A DNA stretch of 62,801 nt, from the IMG/VR virus record IMGVR_UViG_3300031460_000001, positions 1-62,801 of that record. One strand, 5' to 3'. The notes beneath the pieces are model-generated. The model was not told where the DNA came from. It saw only the letters and a list, made by a program, of their open reading frames with translations, and searched no databases. The position numbers were made by a program, and so were the translations under genes. Source of the DNA: a virus. Taxonomy: Duplodnaviria; Caudoviricetes. Numbering within the stretch: the stretch's first letter is position 1; each line of letters begins with the position of its first letter. This document shows positions 393 through 62,801 of this stretch, piece after piece.

Positions 393-1427
393 TTAGTTGG
401 GCGACGCCATGCTGATTTCCAGCTTGCGGATGCCCGATTCCGCCAGCGCCACGTCGCGGTGGAAGTAGCTCTTGTCGAGGATGTTCTGCACGTCCTTGAG
501 GCTGTGGCCCGTGATAGTCGCGATCTCCGGTACCGTCGCCTCGGCTTTGGTGAGACGGAGCACAGCCGTGCCCCGGAGATCATGGAAAGTGCGGTCCTCG
601 ATCTTCGCGGACTTGGCGACGCGATGCCACGCGACCCGGAAGCTGCCGGTGGTCCATGGCCGCCCCAAGGACGAGAGCATGATGATCGGGTGCTCGCGTG
701 GGAGGGCGTCGAGGACGGACTTGAGCGTCGGGCCGACGGGGATCACGACGCGGGTGCCGGTTTTGCTCTGTTCCAGCCGGATTTGACTGCCGTCGTAGGC
801 AGACCATGGCAGAGTGAGGAGGTCGCCGTTCCGCTGCCCGGTCCAGAGCGCCAGGATCATGCCGAGTTGGATCTCGGGACGGGCCACGCCCATGAAGCGC
901 GCGATCTCGGCTTCGCTCCATATTTTCGCGGCGCGCGACCCCTTGTAGAGCCGCCCGCCTTTTTCGCAGGGGTTGGCTTCGACAAGGCCACCGTCGAGCG
1001 CCCATGACAGCACGCGCGCCAGCACCATCCACGAATAGTCTGCGGTCCTCTTTGACCGCCGACCGATCCCATCGCGCCATTCCCGGAACACACCTTTGAT
1101 GGCAGGCTGCTTCAACGCCCCTACGTTCATGGTGCCGAACTCGGTGCGGAGCCGATCGAGGATCTTGCCGTAGTCCTTCCGGGTGCGCGGCGCGAGATCC
1201 GTGAAGGCCGCGCTATCCTGATAGCGGTCGATGACGCTCTCCAGTCGCTTGTCGTCCTTCTTTGCCCTCACCTCCTCATGGGCCGCGTTGTAGCTCGCGA
1301 GGAATTCGGGCGATCCTGGCTTGCCCTCAAGTCGCGGGCCGCATTTCCATGCATAGTGGTAGGTCACGCTGGCGCCGTCGGCCCTGACCTTCCTGACGCT
1401 ATTTATGCCCTTGAGGTGCGCGCGCAT
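393..1427 (-). CDS. int: Tyrosine recombinase / phage integrase
   Basis: Catalytic motifs TGQR, K (QSKT), FHDLR, GHS and Tyr (KSYF). Start placed at ATG 1427 (MRAHLKGINSV), overlapping the upstream small gene. Confidence 0.93.
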   Translation of the reverse strand: MRAHLKGINSVRKVRADGASVTYHYAWKCGPRLEGKPGSPEFLASYNAAHEEVRAKKDDKRLESVIDRYQDSAAFTDLAPRTRKDYGKILDRLRTEFGTMNVGALKQPAIKGVFREWRDGIGRRSKRTADYSWMVLARVLSWALDGGLVEANPCEKGGRLYKGSRAAKIWSEAEIARFMGVARPEIQLGMILALWTGQRNGDLLTLPWSAYDGSQIRLEQSKTGTRVVIPVGPTLKSVLDALPREHPIIMLSSLGRPWTTGSFRVAWHRVAKSAKIEDRTFHDLRGTAVLRLTKAEATVPEIATITGHSLKDVQNILDKSYFHRDVALAESGIRKLEISMASPN

Positions 1428-1611
1428 CCCGCTCTGCCCTCCAGGCCGCGAGGTGGTCGATCTCACCGTCTGTAACATCGGCCTTCCCTGAAACGATCAC
1501 GATCTTGCCGGCTTGGTCAATCTCGACGCGGCCGACCTCGACGCCAGCCGCCTTCACGCCTCTAACAGCGCGCTGCACGTCGGCTTGGCGAAAGGCGACT
1601 CGCTTAACCAT
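1399..1611 (-). CDS. Putative excisionase / recombination directionality factor
   Basis: 70-aa basic protein (FRQADVQRAVRGVKAAG..V.RVEI) overlapping the integrase start; positional inference. Confidence 0.55.
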   Translation of the reverse strand: MVKRVAFRQADVQRAVRGVKAAGVEVGRVEIDQAGKIVIVSGKADVTDGEIDHLAAWRAERDARAPQGHK

Positions 1612-9296: not shown

Positions 9297-9800
9297 CTAG
9301 AGCAGCATCTCGGCTTGATCTATCAGGCCCGGCGTATTCTCAAGCCGAATCCTCATAGCGGCAAGGGATACCCCGAACAGCCGGGCCAACACCTCATCCG
9401 AATGCCCTTTCCGGGCTTCCTGCCTTACCAACGATCTCGGCATGATGATATCGGCAGCCATGCGGTTCGCTTGCGTCTCGTAATGCCCGCTGATTTCGCT
9501 TCGATACATGGTGTCGTCGACTAGGCCCGACTCGATCAGGTCGCGATGCAGGATGTAATGCGCGATTTCGTGTGCCAGCGTGAACCGCTGACGGTTGCTG
9601 TGTTGCGTGGAATTGATGCGGATGAAGAAGCCGGATTTTGGGCTCTTGCGCCGATCCCGAATGATGTGGCCAGCGATGCCGTCGCCGAGGTCGGTGAACT
9701 CGACAGGGATATCCAGGTCGCGTGCGATCGCCTCCAGATTCACCGGGGCTCTGCCGGTGTACCTGCCCACGACTTCGAGAGGATTGACCTCATACCTCAT
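9297..9800 (-). CDS. ImmA/IrrE-family metallopeptidase
   Basis: RQRFTLAHEIAH (HExxH) and ETQANRMAADIIMP, plus C-terminal HTH-like LARLFGVS. Confidence 0.9.
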   Translation of the reverse strand: MRYEVNPLEVVGRYTGRAPVNLEAIARDLDIPVEFTDLGDGIAGHIIRDRRKSPKSGFFIRINSTQHSNRQRFTLAHEIAHYILHRDLIESGLVDDTMYRSEISGHYETQANRMAADIIMPRSLVRQEARKGHSDEVLARLFGVSLAAMRIRLENTPGLIDQAEMLL

Positions 9801-10197
9801 GACGACCCCCCGCTTGATGGGCGATGCTGTTGCCCTCGACGGATGGTGATTGCGCGGCTGCAGCGTCTTCGCGTGCACGGAAAATGGCGGGCTGCAGTTG
9901 ATCGTTGACGGCCTGCCTGACGATGCCTTCCACCATCTTGCGCCCCTCCGCGTATCCGAAAACCGCCACCGCCGCCACGCCGATCGAACCCAACCCTATC
10001 ATAACGCCAAGCGCCGTAAGCAGGATCGACACGAAATCCTTATAATCGACCGTGACCGGCACGACCGATCCGTGGCGATGGAAGACCGTCGTATGGCCGG
10101 CATCGCCTCTGAGAATGAGCCACAGCGACAGGATGCAGGACGATGCGCAACAGAGCGCGACGACGATCCAAAACCCCAAGCGCAACGCTTTGAGCAC
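9790..10197 (-). CDS. Two-TM membrane protein in the immunity operon
   Basis: Two hydrophobic stretches; lies between cI and immA. Confidence 0.65.
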   Translation of the reverse strand: MLKALRLGFWIVVALCCASSCILSLWLILRGDAGHTTVFHRHGSVVPVTVDYKDFVSILLTALGVMIGLGSIGVAAVAVFGYAEGRKMVEGIVRQAVNDQLQPAIFRAREDAAAAQSPSVEGNSIAHQAGGRHEV

Positions 10198-10203
10198 GGT
10201 CCG

Positions 10204-10890
10204 CTACCGGCTCCGCTTCGCCGCGACCTTGATGCTGAGCCGACGTCGATCGTCATGCGTCACGCGGCTCCACTGGCGCGCCCGCACGACAGTCAGAACG
10301 TCTGCGGCCCATGTAAGTTCGACACCGAGGATCGGCGACGCCGTGGCATTGACGCTGATCAAGTTGTAGACGTTCGGCACCGCGGTCCGCAGGGCAAACT
10401 TCAGGAAGCGCCGGCCGTCTGCGGTCAGCACCGCCGCTTCCTCACCGTCCGGAATGCGCTCGAATGGAGTGCCGTCCCTGGGGCAGACTACGACGTCGCC
10501 AGGGCCATAACGCGGCACCATGGAATCGCCGACCACCTCGAAGCCGATGGCGTAGGGCGGCAACGGGATCACGGCTTCGGCGTCGTAATAGCCTTCGGGC
10601 GGCACCTGCTCCACACCCGCATCGATCTCGGCTCCGGCTCCGATACGGCCCATGATGGGGATGGTGGATCGGGAGGAAGCGGATTCACCTTCACCTGTCA
10701 GAAGCCATCCAGGGCCAACCTTGAAAGCGCGTCCATAGATGGAAGCCGCGCCACTATCGAAATTGTTCTGACCGTTTTCATGCGCGGCATAGGTCGAGGG
10801 CGACCAACCAAAGCGTAAGGCGGCAGCACGAGCTGCTGTGAAGCCAGCGTCCTCTCTCGCCTTCCGCAGTCGCGAACCCATGGTGTCCAT
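10204..10890 (-). CDS. CI-like repressor (XRE HTH + S24 peptidase)
   Basis: RLRKAREDAG...YAAHENG HTH; GAG (Ala-Gly) cleavage-site region; GDSM Ser and FLK Lys. Start uncertain (10881-10905). Confidence 0.9.
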   Translation of the reverse strand: MDTMGSRLRKAREDAGFTAARAAALRFGWSPSTYAAHENGQNNFDSGAASIYGRAFKVGPGWLLTGEGESASSRSTIPIMGRIGAGAEIDAGVEQVPPEGYYDAEAVIPLPPYAIGFEVVGDSMVPRYGPGDVVVCPRDGTPFERIPDGEEAAVLTADGRRFLKFALRTAVPNVYNLISVNATASPILGVELTWAADVLTVVRARQWSRVTHDDRRRLSIKVAAKRSR

Positions 10891-10898
10891 AAAGATTG

Positions 10899-10956
10899 TT
10901 CGCACGGCGTGTTAACAGAAATCATGTTGACGTCGCGAACACATATCGTGTAGACG
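10899..10956 (+). promoter_or_regulatory. Rightward promoter (PR-like) with operators
   Basis: TTGACG 10927-10932; operators AACAGAAATCATGTT (10914-10928) and AACACATATCGTGTA (10938-10952) match the pair at 9201-9230. Confidence 0.7.
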
Positions 10957-58874: not shown

Positions 58875-59702
58875 TTAGACCAAGGCCGCTTCGATCTCGG
58901 CAGCCAATGCAGGATGGCCGGCAATCCTAACGATTTCCGCCGCCCGCTTCGTCGCCGCCGCATAGGCAGGATGGGCTTTCAGTTTCGCCGCAGGGTCCAT
59001 GGGCGCCCGCTCGACGTGCTTGGCCGTGGCGCGGTCCTTCCCGGCCGCGCGAGCCTTGGTGACGGCTTCGGCGAGCACTTCCGTTGCTCTGGCATCATCG
59101 CCCTTGGCGGCCCGCATGGTGTCGATGGCGAGCCCGGCCGAGATGGTGCCGGCCTTGACCATGTCGGCCACGGGTTTCGGGGCCGCCCGCAGTTTGAGGA
59201 GGTCGGCGACGCGCTGGCGGGTCAAACCGACTTTCGCGGCGATCTCGGCTTCCTTCCATCCGAGGTCCATGAGCTTGGCGAAGACGTTGCCTTTCTCGAA
59301 GGGCTCAAGCGGCTTGCCCGAGTTCCGCACGATCTGGCTCAGGACCCGGTCGGCCTCGTTGGCGTGCTTTCCCTCGGTCTGGACGGGCACGGACTGGATC
59401 TTGGCACCGAGGACGTCCATGGCGTAGAGCGTCGCGGCGAGCCGCCTGTGACCGTCCGTGATGACCGGCACGCCGGCCCGCATGTAGACGGTGACGGCGC
59501 TCTTCACGCCGACTTCCGCTATGGACCGGGCGAGTTCGATGTCATCCGGGTCGGCGGGGTCGAAATCCTTTGTACGTGAATTCCACCCGGGGTCCACGGT
59601 GAGATCGCGCGGCGCCATGCGGAACAGGTCGACGCGCCCGAGCGCCATGTCCTGAATGCCGCGGGTCTTGGGCTTGGTGTCGGCGGGTTCGGCGCGGATC
59701 AT
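58875..59702 (-). CDS. ParB/Srx-like protein with HTH
   Basis: G.NSR; LA.SI...GV; TDGHRRL; N.GKPL.P.E; EIA.KVG.TRQ.V...L.L. Confidence 0.8.
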   Translation of the reverse strand: MIRAEPADTKPKTRGIQDMALGRVDLFRMAPRDLTVDPGWNSRTKDFDPADPDDIELARSIAEVGVKSAVTVYMRAGVPVITDGHRRLAATLYAMDVLGAKIQSVPVQTEGKHANEADRVLSQIVRNSGKPLEPFEKGNVFAKLMDLGWKEAEIAAKVGLTRQRVADLLKLRAAPKPVADMVKAGTISAGLAIDTMRAAKGDDARATEVLAEAVTKARAAGKDRATAKHVERAPMDPAAKLKAHPAYAAATKRAAEIVRIAGHPALAAEIEAALV

Positions 59703-59729
59703 GGGGTGGAGTCCTTGGGTGATCTGGGT

Positions 59730-59969
59730 TCACTTCATCCTCACGCCGTGCCCGCCCGAGCGCACGTCACCAGGATCAAGAAAGAGGATGCCGGCAGCAT
59801 CGAACGTCGCCTTGATCGCAGCAAGGTTTCGGGTCTGCATGTTCGGCATCTCGTCTACGGACTCGGCCCGCTGGACGGCAGCATATGAAAGGCCGCAGCG
59901 GTTCGCGAGATCGTGCGCCGACCATCTCAGCATCGCCCTCGCGGCGCGTATCTGTGCTCCCGTCAACAT
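59730..59969 (-). CDS. XRE-family HTH regulator
   Basis: MLTGAQIRAARAMLRWSA.DLA...G.S...V.RAE...AGI.F......G.GVR. Confidence 0.85.
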   Translation of the reverse strand: MLTGAQIRAARAMLRWSAHDLANRCGLSYAAVQRAESVDEMPNMQTRNLAAIKATFDAAGILFLDPGDVRSGGHGVRMK

Positions 59970-60092
59970 GCGTTCGGCTTCTAGCCGTGGTGTGTCTGGG
60001 GCGAAAGCTACATTCACTCGCATGGGCGCTGGGAACTCTGCAGAGGGCGCAGCCGAAAGACTCGATTGTGAGAGATTTTCTAGCTATTAGGC

Positions 60093-60121
60093 TTGATAAG
60101 ATAATTCATGCGCGATAAGTT
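60093..60121 (+). promoter_or_regulatory. Putative sigma70 promoter for the RAMP-like operon
   Basis: TTGATA-N17-TAAGTT in an AT-rich divergent intergenic region. Confidence 0.45.
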
Positions 60122-60192
60122 CTCAACTGCAAACGCAAGGGCAAGGGTTCATTGGGAGCCATGAAAGCCTCAACGCGGTGCAGGAGTGCCAC

Positions 60193-60954
60193 ATGGCTGC
60201 GAAGAAAGAGACCTTGAAGGCCGAACCGGCTAAGGGGGATACCGAGACCGTCCGAATCGCCTTGTCGAGCAAGCCGCTGTTCAAGCGTTTCACGATTTGG
60301 TTGGTCGGCGACACGCCGCTTATCACTCACGCTTGGTCGGAGAAGGCCCGTCGCGAGATGCTGGCGAAACAGGTGAAGGGCACCAAAGCCGGTAAGGAGG
60401 CCCGAGACCCCGAGAGCGATTTCGTCAACTCGCTCTACGACATGGATGGCGGCTACGGGTTCCCGGCCATGGGGTTCAAGAACTGTGTTCTTTCGGCTGC
60501 CCATAAGGACAAGGGCATCGCCCGTTCGGCCGTCATGTCGGCGCTGTGGATCGATGCCGATATGGTACGTGCTCGACCGGCTCTCGCCGGCGCAATCTGC
60601 GACATGCCGCTCATCCGCATCTACGGCTCGAAACCCGAGATGCGCGAGGACATGGTCAAGGTTGGCGCAGGGCTGAACAAGACTGCTTCGCTAGCGTACC
60701 GCGGGCAGTTCACGACATGGGCAATCCGGGTCACGGGACGTTTCAACGCTTCCGTGCTGACCGCCGAAGCGCTGGCGTTCCTCATTCAAGAAGCCGGGAT
60801 CTCCTACGGCCTCGGCGAATGGCGGAACGAGAAGAGGGGCGTTTTCGGCGCCTTCCATCTTGCCGATGCGAAGGAGGAAGCAGGATGGGAAGCCTTCGCG
60901 ATGGGTACGGGGCCGATGCCGTCCGCCGTGCCCTCCGCGATGGCTGCGGAGTAA
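60193..60954 (+). CDS. Cas7/RAMP-like RNA-binding protein (Vipr-like effector candidate)
   Basis: N-terminal beta strand I.LVGDTPLITH; FPA.GFK (RAMP 'P..s.KG' position); C-terminal G-rich loop AG.SYGLGEWR.EKRG.FG.F. No cas1/cas2/cas3 nearby. AGGAG RBS. Confidence 0.7.
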   Translation: MAAKKETLKAEPAKGDTETVRIALSSKPLFKRFTIWLVGDTPLITHAWSEKARREMLAKQVKGTKAGKEARDPESDFVNSLYDMDGGYGFPAMGFKNCVLSAAHKDKGIARSAVMSALWIDADMVRARPALAGAICDMPLIRIYGSKPEMREDMVKVGAGLNKTASLAYRGQFTTWAIRVTGRFNASVLTAEALAFLIQEAGISYGLGEWRNEKRGVFGAFHLADAKEEAGWEAFAMGTGPMPSAVPSAMAAE

Positions 60955-60960
60955 TCCATC

Positions 60961-61473
60961 ATGCCGACGTATAACTTCCGCGATGACGAGCCTGTCCGTC
61001 TCAAGGCATCCAAGAACGCTGATCCGCAGGTAATCGGCGATGCCCTAGAAGCCATTGCCAAAACGAACGGCGGTGAGATCGTACCGAAGGCGGTCGTCGA
61101 TGCTGCGCGGTCACCGAAGCACCCGCTGCACCCGCACTTCGAATGGGATGACAAGTTGGCGGCCGAAGCACACCGCCTCGACCAAGCCCGTAGCTTGATC
61201 CGTATCGTGCGGGTCGAGGATGCAAGCGCCACGGACGGCACAAGCAGGGCGTTTCTGTCCATCTCGGAAAAGGCCGGCACCTCCTATCGGTCACTCGCCG
61301 ACGTGAAAGCCAGTATCGGGATGCAAGACGCGATCCTGAAAGCGGCGGCCCGCGACCTGGACGCTTTTCAGCAGAGGTACCGAGATTTGACCGATATTTG
61401 TGAGTTCGTGAGCAAGGCCAAAGAGGCAATCACGCGCCGCCAAGAAAAGCAAAGCCAGCGTCGAGCGGCTTAG
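60961..61473 (+). CDS. Small helical partner protein of the RAMP-like gene
   Basis: VVDAAR....PLH..FEWDD..AA..HRL.QAR.LI; 6 nt after the RAMP-like stop and directly before the array. Confidence 0.75.
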   Translation: MPTYNFRDDEPVRLKASKNADPQVIGDALEAIAKTNGGEIVPKAVVDAARSPKHPLHPHFEWDDKLAAEAHRLDQARSLIRIVRVEDASATDGTSRAFLSISEKAGTSYRSLADVKASIGMQDAILKAAARDLDAFQQRYRDLTDICEFVSKAKEAITRRQEKQSQRRAA

Positions 61474-61480
61474 CATCAAA

Positions 61481-62049
61481 TGATTGGCAAGGCAGGCTTA
61501 GTGCCGCACGGCGCGACTCTGACAGGTACAGTTCTGAACTGAATGGCTGTCGTGGCGTGGCGAGTCAGCGCGTAGACTGGCAAGCTCAGGGGTGGATCGG
61601 TAAGGCAGTCTAGGCTGAGTCCGTCAAAGATCGGGTGAGAGCGTAACGGCGTCGTAAGTATTGGCGAGGCAGTCAAGTCAAGTTCCGTCGCGTCGCTTCG
61701 TGTAACGGCCTTGAGGTGTGAAGCAGTCGCGGGCTGTTTTGAGATGAAAAGTAGTGCAAGGCTGGGCTAGGCAAGGCAGTCTAGTCAAGGATCGGTAGGT
61801 ATCAGAACTTCTCGTATCTGACCGGATTAGCAAGGCAGGCACGGCGGGGATTAGCTTGTCGCGGTCAGTCAGAGACCGTCCCGCATCGGTAAGGCAGGCA
61901 AAGATAGGCGCTGTTCTGAATGTAGCGTTTAGTACGGTCAGTGATCGGCAAGGCAGTCAAGGTTCGGCACGTTTTTGATTTGCGGGGTCGAGCAAGTAGC
62001 GGATCTGCATCGCAAAGCAGTCATTGCTTGGCAAGTCGCCGCAGTGAGA
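61481..62049 (+). repeat. Non-coding pentamer-periodic array: 9 complete units plus 1 partial, each GGCA + 10-12 x (GGY-like triplet + NN); candidate guide-RNA array
   Basis: Unit starts 61491, 61545, 61604, 61668, 61722, 61775, 61834, 61893, 61952, 62016. Spacings are 54, 59, 64, 54, 53, 59, 59, 59, 64, i.e. 5n+4 except one. Confidence 0.88.
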
Positions 62050-62080
62050 CAACGTCCATTCGCTGTTAGGAAATGCGTAG

Positions 62081-62106
62081 CGGCCATCCTTCGGGGCGGC
62101 CGTTTT
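62081..62106 (+). terminator. Intrinsic terminator closing the array
   Basis: CGGCCATCC-TTCG-GGGCGGCCG-TTTT. Confidence 0.75.
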
Positions 62107-62121
62107 ATATGGAGTATCCCC

Positions 62122-62337
62122 ATGACACCCGACCTCAAAGACAGCCTCGACGCCGAGGCTTTCGCGACCGCGTGCGCGGCTGTGCCTGACGTGGATCCTG
62201 AACGGTTGCGTACCGCGATCAACAGCTACTGCGGCGACCTTCACCTCGCGATCCATCACGTTTACACCGAAGTCGAACTGACGCCCGAAGAAGTGCTGGA
62301 CGCTTTCCGGCCGCGCGACGTCACGGTGGAGTCCTGA
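62122..62337 (+). CDS. 71-aa acidic hypothetical protein
   Basis: GGAG RBS, ATG 62122; MTPDLKDSLDAEAF...LDAFRPRDVTVES. Confidence 0.65.
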   Translation: MTPDLKDSLDAEAFATACAAVPDVDPERLRTAINSYCGDLHLAIHHVYTEVELTPEEVLDAFRPRDVTVES

Positions 62338-62340
62338 ACC

Positions 62341-62581
62341 ATGCCAGATTTCGCCAAAGCCCTTGTGCTTGTCCTCAAATACGAGGGCGGGAAAGTCGAT
62401 AGAAAAGACGATCCCGGCGGGCGCACGGCCTACGGCTGCACACAGACAACTTTCGATGCTTGGTGCGGGTCGAATGCCGTAACTAAACGCGACGTGTTCA
62501 CGATCACGCCAGCCGAACTCGAGGCGATATATCACAATCGCTATGCTTCGGCGATCCGTTTCGACGATCTTCCCGAAGGTG
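62341..62581 (+). pseudogene. Glycoside hydrolase family 108 endolysin, truncated by IS
   Basis: VLKYEGG.V....DPGG.T.YG.T...IY...Y.......LP.GV, then an abrupt stop inside the IS end. Confidence 0.85.
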
Positions 62582-62801
62582 TGTAGGGCGGTGACAAAGC
62601 AGGCCACTGGAGCGCCGGCGAAGTGCTGACGCGGGCGGAGTAAAATCCGGCCAGTGGATAGGCTCCCGGTTTTGGGGGGGCCGGGGATGTTCGTCGTGGA
62701 GATCTACGCCGCCGTTCGGAAATTCGTGTTCATCGAAGGTCACAGCCGCCGGGAGGCCGCCCGGGTTTTCGGACTGAACCGCGAGACGGTGCTGAAGATG
62801 T
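62582..62801 (+). mobile_element. IS21-family insertion sequence, left end
   Basis: Terminal TGTAGGGCGG..., internal repeated GGCG-GTGACAAAGCAGGCCACTGG / GGCGGAGTAAAATCCGGCCAGTGG, followed by the transposase start. Confidence 0.8.
62687..62801 (+). CDS. istA: IS21 transposase IstA (5' part, runs off window)
   Basis: MFVVEIYAAVRKFVFIEGHSRREAARVFGLNRETVLKM, the N-terminal HTH typical of IstA. Confidence 0.8.
   Translation, partial: MFVVEIYAAVRKFVFIEGHSRREAARVFGLNRETVLKM

Follow-up and report, generated by a model that had tools for sequence, protein, structure and literature searches.

Near the right end of a temperate phage genome, two small genes are followed by a stretch that codes for no long protein, and the question arises what this unit does for the phage. 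The genome is the IMG/VR record IMGVR_UViG_3300031460_000001 (Duplodnaviria, Caudoviricetes), analysed over its full length of 62,801 nucleotides and called the window in the following. A first-pass annotation had described two genes followed by a stretch poor in open reading frames (ORFs). This agrees with the ORF calls, which give ORF1 and ORF2 (vipr and the vap-like gene in Table 1) and no long ORF in 61474-62121. The annotation had also proposed a likeness to VIPR (Viral Interference Programmable Repeat), a system described in three preprints of 2026 (among them 10.64898/2026.04.26.720920 / PMC13142463 and 10.64898/2026.04.26.720927). According to these preprints, a VIPR locus consists of a small Vipr RAMP protein, a vap gene and vrRNAs of 9-16 YNNGG repeats, and seven types are distinguished. 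They also state that VIPR reads double-stranded DNA via the NN dinucleotides and that a one-base skip lands on codon wobble positions. The Vipr homology, the pentamer array, the vap gene and the 1-nt-skip targets reported below all agree with the preprints, so that the proposed likeness has held. We have little doubt that the locus belongs to VIPR, and it is highly probable that 60193-62109 as a whole is the VIPR system of a temperate phage, composed of a Vipr RAMP, a vap-like protein and a staggered array.

Judged by its sequence and its predicted fold, ORF1 is a Vipr homologue. When all PDB sequences were searched with the single sequence (phmmer), the only match was 36pp_D, the 'SUSP1 Vipr protein', at E 0.0013. 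A profile of 26 ORF1 homologues again found this chain as the only PDB match, at E 2.8e-5. The residues H46, R170, E209, W210 and R211 align to H17, R138, D177, W178 and R179 of SUSP1 Vipr and are invariant in the 26-sequence alignment. It has been reported that these SUSP1 residues contact two guanines and a pyrimidine (10.64898/2026.04.26.720927, available text). No Pfam family was found for ORF1, and its sole family-level match is an unnamed PHROG. The family itself is large, with 2044 protein clusters at E <=1e-3.

The first-pass annotation had read this protein as a RAMP/RRM subunit and had asked for a structure search against RAMPs. In the AlphaFold2 model of ORF1 (predicted local distance difference test, pLDDT, 75.6), the predicted fold was related to RAMPs only. 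All Foldseek matches were Csm3/Cas7/Cmr RAMPs, with Csm3 and type VII Cas7 as the best rows (probability ~1.0, E ~1e-3). Likewise, the 50 best rows of a VIA structure search were without exception CRISPR RAMPs. These alignments had Z values of 9.1-6.9, lay within residues 27-227 and comprised 112-153 aligned residues at a root-mean-square deviation of 3.3-5.0 Å.

Downstream of the two genes, the segment 61477-62079 is the most 5-nt-periodic DNA of the window. At lags 5, 10 and 15, the base autocorrelation between 61474 and 62121 reaches 0.365, 0.335 and 0.34, compared to ~0.22 at other lags. The periodicity statistic of the array is 0.118, about 10 standard deviations above 1000 mononucleotide shuffles (mean 0.0003, standard deviation 0.011, maximum 0.041). 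When 622 sliding windows of 640 nt were ranked over the whole 62.8 kb, the top 8 all overlapped the array. The composition of the pentamers was determined from 100 pentamers in nine of the ten units, with unit 5 excluded for an internal slip. Position 1 is G in 64%, position 2 is G in 61% and T in 31%, and position 3 is C in 47%, A in 31%, T in 18% and G in 4%. Positions 4 and 5 are near-uniform, with 0.07 bits each, which gives the consensus G-K-H-N-N. Since the triplet is conserved and the last two positions are nearly free, the earlier description of a conserved triplet with a variable dinucleotide, looser than GGY, is correct. The array is also strand-biased, with 45 full GGY triplets on the + strand vs 9 on the - strand. 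The glutamate E209 in place of the SUSP1 D177 could accompany the relaxed first base.

A register-tracking parse divides the array into about ten units, which start at 61495, 61549, 61608, 61672, 61726, 61779, 61838, 61897, 61956 and 62020. The distances between these starts are 54, 59, 64, 54, 53, 59, 59, 59 and 64 nt. All unit lengths except that of unit 5 have the form 5n-1, and the units hold 11-13 pentamers each. A unit ends in ..GGATC GGYAA GGCA and the next one opens with G(G/T)C, one G being common to both, and the register slips by -1 at every such boundary. Nine copies of the boundary motif were found at regular spacing. We infer from these boundaries that the vrRNAs are processed where GGCA and the following G overlap. 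Staggered arrays, in which successive vrRNAs overlap by 1 nt, are described in the legend of Fig. S18 of 10.64898/2026.04.26.720920; the -1 slip matches this layout, and therefore the layout of the array has already been described. Rfam gave no family match for the array at E up to 1, and Tandem Repeats Finder did not report it. The array is followed by a hairpin (62079-62104) with 7+3 bp and a UUCG loop and then by UUUUAUAU, as folded by RNAfold. Its energy of -18.1 kcal/mol (z -0.73) is unexceptional. The terminator proposed in the first-pass annotation thus has a hairpin with a U tract in its favour, whereas a simple terminator scan missed it.

In order to cover the association between gene and array, 93 related loci were scanned, of which 13 came from genomes and 80 were kept out of 439 related viral loci. 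The first-pass annotation had asked whether homologues of ORF1 are followed by periodic arrays, and this was the case in 76 of the 93 loci. In these, the strongest periodic 300-nt window began within -100 to +2000 nt of the vipr homologue's end and had a statistic of at least 0.10. The median offset was +600 nt, which is just beyond a vap-sized gene. The strongest window was located farther downstream in two of the 93 loci and upstream of vipr in three (L047, L009 and L005, with offsets of -1866, -3669 and -1051). The remaining 12 loci were under the periodicity threshold, and 4 of them had less than 1 kb of downstream sequence. The boundary motif with 5n-1 spacing recurs in six loci (L026, L027, L029, L030, L032 and L033). 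As a side observation, L080 is 5-nt periodic over ~3 kb (L080:800-3850; whole-locus median statistic 0.167), which suggests a very long array.

A different explanation would be that the 11-16-nt motifs with their ~59-nt spacing are DNA sites, that is iterons or a centromere, for the ParB-like protein or for the winged-helix-like ORF2. The ParB-like gene is encoded on the opposite strand 1.8 kb upstream, the nine copies of the motif have a regular spacing, and ORF2 has weak winged-helix-like matches. However, the strand-specific 5-nt periodicity fills all the space between the motifs, and a 1-nt-skip reading is the only one under which the variable dinucleotides fit coding genes elsewhere. Moreover, the array follows vipr homologues in the 76 loci mentioned above (the presence of ParB was not checked there). 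On the inter-motif periodicity, the skip matches and the vipr association the iteron/parS reading was rejected, and we regard it as extremely improbable.

For the targeting code, the arrays of 92 sources were pooled, which gave 5204 distinct words of seven NN units. These words were matched exactly, in gapped form, outside the arrays in the window and in the related loci. We found 90 exact 14-base gapped seeds at a skip of 1 nt, compared to 19, 24, 25 and 26 at skips of 0, 2, 3 and 4 nt and to 16-33 in shuffled-word controls. The count of 90 is inflated by homologous targets; counted as independent guide events, there were 38 at skip 1 vs 18-24. Skip 1 was also the only one with perfect runs of 10 and 12 units. 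By these matches, the pooled guides follow the published 1-nt-skip rule.

One of these matches is found between VIPR loci themselves. The first vrRNA of L076 (5182-5240) matches vap-like genes at L069:4846-4874 and L062:4870-4898 with 10/10 NN, in frame and with a wobble-phased skip, and the peptide at this site is GLIRAVVAVY. Such a match suggests that VIPR systems target one another within the clade. Here the first ten units match and the last two constant pentamers do not, for which reason we call GGYAA GGCA the invariable 3' end. The same vrRNA has an 8-unit match in five more loci. In L040, a solo vrRNA-like run (L040:3877-3940) is located upstream of vipr, is followed by a strong hairpin and matches L035:3752-3786 (- strand) with 12/12 NN. 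In 17 loci, among them the window at 60496-60515, an L049 guide fits the AAHKDKG codons of vipr; as a vipr-targeting guide it was rejected, since the match is at chance level, with 7 units only and without extension.

The protein fold and the guide-like array also raise the possibility of a class 1 CRISPR-Cas system. This was rejected, as there is no Cas1, no repeat-spacer array and no enrichment at skip 0, the contiguous reading. The first-pass annotation had stated that the window has no cas1/2/3/5/6/8/10 gene. This stands for Cas1, which a six-frame search of the window did not find, and for the 43 of 81 larger ORFs covered by a PHROG scan, where no cas gene was found; other cas families were not searched singly. 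The repeats in the window are the 11-16-nt boundaries within the pentamer lattice, and no CRISPR repeat-spacer array was found there.

When the ten guides of the window were searched against the window itself and the 93 related loci at skips 0-3, no target rose above the shuffled nulls, and the best self-match reached 17/24. In bacterial genomes, guide 7 is predicted to find its target in capV, the gene for the phospholipase effector of the cyclic-oligonucleotide-based anti-phage signalling system (CBASS). The search covered 401 genomes from the order of a Tianweitania genome that bears a related prophage. Sites with <=2 mismatches were present in 21 of these genomes, of which 2 were perfect, 7 had one mismatch and 12 had two. 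A reversed-pattern control gave 7 matches by our own count, and under uniform base frequencies ~0.003 perfect and 0.2 one-mismatch sites are expected by chance. Eleven loci were inspected, and in nine of them the site falls on the DGG[ILV]WANNP codons of an ORF for a patatin-like protein, antisense and wobble-phased. These nine ORFs match the PADLOC models for CBASS phospholipase effectors with E values down to 1e-119, and a CD-NTase, a Cap2-like E2 or a capP gene adjoins seven of them. One of the perfect sites, in genome G086 (L161, G086:C14:10700-30699), is accompanied by the patatin, a DncV-like cyclase, E1/E2 and JAB genes. The operon adjoins a type I restriction-modification system with a Fic gene, and an ArdC-like gene is nearby; we take the region for a defence island, possibly on an integrative element.

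The skip rule holds for capV as well. Ten-unit guide windows with at least 18/20 matches to ten capV loci numbered 23 at skip 1 and 1, 0 and 0 at the other skips. Guides against capV are carried by at least six arrays. Those of L046, L043, L030 and L001, the Tianweitania prophage, vary in two places, the Leu/Val/Ile codon (AG, AC, AT) and the last codon, and in each case the guide fits a capV allele found in nature. In L068, the catalytic-Asp site is matched by a sense-strand guide, and a guide of L037 matches 10/10 at the nucleophile motif of capV, LIAGTSTGGII, which includes the GTSTG serine motif.

For guide 3, whose predicted target encodes the HExxH motif of ImmA/IrrE/CapP-family metalloproteases, 25 sites were found in 23 of 400 genomes (1 perfect, 8 one-mismatch) vs 4 control matches by our own count. 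The perfect site, in G040, lies in a full-length capP, which has capH and a CBASS effector as its neighbours. In G033, G338 and G199, the sites of guides 3 and 7 are 3.1 kb apart within one operon. Five further genome matches of guide 3 are short ImmA-like ORFs. Going by sequence matching alone, guides 7 and 3 both reach 20/20 matches in wobble phase. The phage encodes an ImmA/IrrE-like protease of its own (PADLOC capP model, 2.4e-29), whose HExxH site (9556-9590) fits guide 3 at only 17 of 24 positions, so that it seems to escape self-targeting. Overall, guide 3 is most plausibly directed against repressor-cleaving proteases as a group.

By analogy with the VIPR of SUSP1, transcription, processing, ribonucleoprotein formation and silencing would proceed as follows. 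The array would be transcribed together with vipr and vap, and cuts at the overlapping boundaries would release about ten vrRNAs of ~54-64 nt. Vipr protomers would then polymerise along each vrRNA, one per pentamer, burying the G-(G/T)-(C/A/T) triplet and presenting the two variable bases. The first-pass annotation had proposed this arrangement, and in its available text the cryo-EM preprint reports it for SUSP1. About ten NN dinucleotides would pair with double-stranded DNA, every third target base being skipped, and transcription would be blocked. The constant last two pentamers (GGYAA GGCA) would serve as an invariable 3' end or as a processing boundary rather than as guide. The guides cover the first two bases of codons, and the skip falls on the wobble position. 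Since they do so at codons of catalytic motifs, the guides would cover a broad range of alleles and leave no harmless escape mutation. The same argument is made for a satellite recombinase in the available text of the October preprint.

With respect to function, guide 3 would act on proteases that cleave repressors, both in prophage switches and in the capH-capP modules of CBASS. Constitutive silencing would serve a prophage in three ways. Silencing of the integrases of rivals, the P4-type elements matched by guide 2, and of switch proteases would hold competitors in place. Silencing of capP would prevent the damage-induced de-repression of CBASS. Silencing of capV would disarm the CBASS of the host before prophage induction, a role that we did not find in print. 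Hence, the array may be an RNA-guided counter-defence, in which vrRNA 7 silences capV and vrRNA 3 silences capP and which permits induction without abortive infection; for this specific scenario we see the chances as evenly balanced. That the array has a genuine anti-CBASS role at all appears slightly more probable than the opposite.

Several observations speak against these interpretations, some of them on the side of the targets and others on the side of the locus itself. Guide 3 has 19 exact matches in viral contigs, of which 12 have a capH-like gene directly upstream. These phage-borne pairs of capH-like repressor and capP-like protease genes have no CBASS gene within 1.5 kb, and thus the guide need not concern CBASS. 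G040, despite its perfect guide-3 site in capP, has no guide-7 site at <=2 mismatches. The capV matches come from genomes of the order, and a host of this phage need not carry a matching capV. Moreover, silencing the transcription of an effector that is already expressed would not aid a freshly infecting phage.

The system might be a working VIPR that serves as a weapon between mobile elements only, the matched capV and capP genes being cargo of rival prophages, islands or satellites. The natural targets of VIPR that the available preprint texts name comprise satellites, regulators of prophage switches and other VIPR loci. Guide 2 fits integrases of mobile elements: it has 12 genome matches with <=2 mismatches vs 3 in the control (our own count), of which 7 are sense, in frame and located at V(V/I)E(K/R/T)xLNHVS. 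In the encoded integrases, which have 413-470 aa and Arm-DNA-bind_3 and Phage_integrase domains, the site falls between the HDLRR box and the catalytic Tyr. The guide also has one exact, in-frame match in a metagenome, from a collection large enough to yield about one by chance. The viral sites of guide 3 point in the same direction, and the CBASS of G086, beside an ArdC-like gene and a type I restriction-modification system, could belong to an integrative element. However, among 2.9 million viral contigs none matches guide 7 exactly, as compared to its two perfect and seven one-mismatch sites in the 401 bacterial genomes. Around the sites of G086 and G338, no phage structural gene was found up to a distance of 10 kb (Pfam search of ORF calls, which are poor around the G338 operon), and capV guides recur in the arrays of several loci. 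We therefore judge a role restricted to mobile elements rather unlikely.

For seven of the ten guides no target was found; guides 4, 5 and 10 were searched only against the window and the 93 loci. Guide 8 gave three two-mismatch matches in 400 genomes vs one in the control, which is chance level. Guides 9, 6, 1 and 2 were also scanned in five capV-bearing genomes. Guide 9 had no match there, guide 6 had two three-mismatch matches vs one in the control and guide 1 had three matches vs four, both at chance level, and guide 2 had one three-mismatch match vs one. In the viral contigs, guides 8, 6, 2 and 9 were, like guide 7, without exact matches.

Regarding the locus itself, no sigma-70-like promoter was found on the + strand in 59900-62400, so that the promoter suggested by the first-pass annotation has not been borne out. 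The locus was found in five DNA sequencing runs (rock metagenomes) and in no RNA run among the sequencing runs listed. The ORF1 model is only moderately confident, with a pLDDT below 50 in the G-loop at 210-213. Within the array, one boundary, at 61549, is degenerate, and no boundary closes unit 10. The triplet is degenerate, with G at only 61-64% at positions 1 and 2, and unit 5 carries an internal register slip.

The last two points would suit a decaying relic, in which vipr and vap are perhaps intact, degenerate triplets no longer load Vipr and the target matches are leftovers. L049 and L076 show much cleaner GGC repeats, the periodicity statistic of ~0.12-0.13 is low for the family (range 0.10-0.34), and the ORF of the adjacent lysin ends early. 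However, guides 3 and 7 keep 20/20 matches to real genes, and Vipr retains all five residues that contact the GG. In addition, the available text of PMC13142463 allows 'a related consensus' to GGY for other VIPR types. Decay of the array is very unlikely in our estimation.

The vap-like ORF2 has no Pfam match above the cut-off, and none of its 170 homologues is named. Its AlphaFold2 model (pLDDT 91.1) shows an N-terminal alpha/beta domain and a 50-residue helix at 119-169. Foldseek returned no row at E <=0.001 and just weak winged-helix-like rows at E 0.5-2. A wide VIA search of ORF2 gave only coiled-coil matches to the C-terminal helix, with Z <=6.5. The vap proteins are described as 'predicted DNA binding' in the available text of a VIPR preprint, and the weak winged-helix-like matches of the ORF2 model fit this loosely.

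The window is a complete temperate-phage record of the linear class with a CheckV completeness of 100. In addition to the genes listed in Table 1, it has genes for recombination and replication, and those for the terminase, the portal, the major capsid protein, the tail, the baseplate and the fibres extend up to ~57.5 kb. The gene order at the right end is tail/fibre, ParB-like, HTH (helix-turn-helix), vipr, vap, array, a 71-aa ORF and a GH108 lysin. The ParB-like and small HTH genes (58875-60023, - strand) run divergently from vipr. The lysin ORF (62341-62586) has 81 aa, and its stop falls inside the domain (profile positions 3-73 of 85). An ORF open at its 3' end (62654-62800) leaves the end of the record and has a weak HTH_28 match (E 5e-4, below the cut-off). 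It resembles the start of an insertion sequence transposase, which we presume to have broken up the lysis region.

Table 1. Features of the window with their positions, strands and supporting remarks.
Feature	Position	Strand	Remark
vipr, Vipr-type RAMP protein (ORF1), 253 aa	60193-60954	+	phrog_4652, E 2e-21; GGAG 9 nt before ATG
vap-like accessory gene (ORF2), 170 aa	60961-61473	+	phrog_15946, E 2.4e-24
Leading boundary-motif copy, GATTGGCAAGGCAG	61482-61495	+	9 nt past the vap stop codon
Staggered vrRNA array, ~10 units	61495-62079	+	Register-tracking parse
Guide 2	61549-61607	+	Predicted target: conserved V(V/I)E(K/R)(V/I)LNHVS box of P4-type tyrosine integrase gene
Guide 3	61608-61671	+	Predicted target: HExxH codons (FTVAHE[LF]GHY) of ImmA/IrrE/CapP-family metalloprotease gene
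Guide 7	61838-61896	+	Predicted target: catalytic-Asp codons (DGG[LIV]WANNP) of CBASS phospholipase gene capV
Terminator-like hairpin and U tract	62079-62109	+	RNAfold
Integrase	393-1478	-	
ImmA/IrrE-like protease	9297-9878	-	Adjoins the repressor gene
Repressor	10204-10905	-	
ParB-like gene	58875-59702	-	phrog_1033, E 2e-49
Small HTH gene	59730-60023	-	

Since its first description in 2026, VIPR has been characterised in phages of enterobacteria and of Pseudomonas only. The present locus reveals a large clade in alphaproteobacterial phages, with the 2044 protein clusters and 439 viral loci mentioned above. In this clade, the staggered layout and the 1-nt-skip code can be read from natural target matches alone. 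If the counter-defence reading is true, VIPR extends from conflict between viruses to the programmable silencing of bacterial immune genes. Synonymous escape would then be impossible, and amino-acid escape would be self-defeating at codons of catalytic motifs. With functional capV and capP matches, the known anti-defence strategies would gain an RNA-guided class, and the placement of guides on catalytic codons would be explained.

Both the system and the layout of the array are already in print, and it is the cargo, that is the set of targets, which may be new. The words CBASS, patatin and anti-defense are absent from the available texts of PMC13142463 and the October preprint, whose supplementary target tables may list such targets, and we found no paper that treats vrRNA and CBASS together. 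The locus shares with the published staggered-array VIPR a small Vipr RAMP with one vap gene, the lack of cas genes and the location on a phage. Pentamers of a triplet and NN, the 1-nt overlap of vrRNAs, 1-nt-skip targets in codon phase and some guides against other VIPR loci are likewise common to both. The triplet differs, being G-(G/T)-(C/A/T) here and GGY there.

In comparison with the type II VIPR of SUSP1 (36pp), the C-terminal G-loop is homologous (GVGDWR vs GLGEWR here), the thumb Arg and the beta-sheet His are conserved, and one vap gene and an array lie downstream. Sequence similarity is marginal, with E 0.0013 over ~60 aligned residues. The SUSP1 Vipr protein has 202 aa and D177, whereas the protein studied here has 253 aa and E209. 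The SUSP1 vrRNAs are ~100 nt long with a structured, pseudoknotted 3' tail, whereas the units described here have 54-64 nt and a constant end of 9 nt.

Csm3 and Cas7 of type III and type VII CRISPR-Cas have the RRM/RAMP fold in common with Vipr, and one subunit covers a fixed number of guide nucleotides. The register would be 5 nt here vs 6 nt in these proteins, and the guide is noncontiguous. Unlike these systems, the window is without Cas1, a CRISPR array, Cas10, Cas5 and Cas6, of which only Cas1 was searched singly.

Phages are known to counter CBASS with the proteins Acb1 and Acb2, which destroy or sponge the cyclic nucleotide signal. The Vibrio phage ICP1 carries a CRISPR-Cas system aimed at the PLE element. 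The VIPR array would resemble both as a phage-encoded counter to an anti-phage system of the host or resident in it, and ICP1 uses RNA guides as well. In contrast to Acb1 and Acb2, and with no nuclease evident, the locus described here would silence the effector gene itself by means of guide RNAs.

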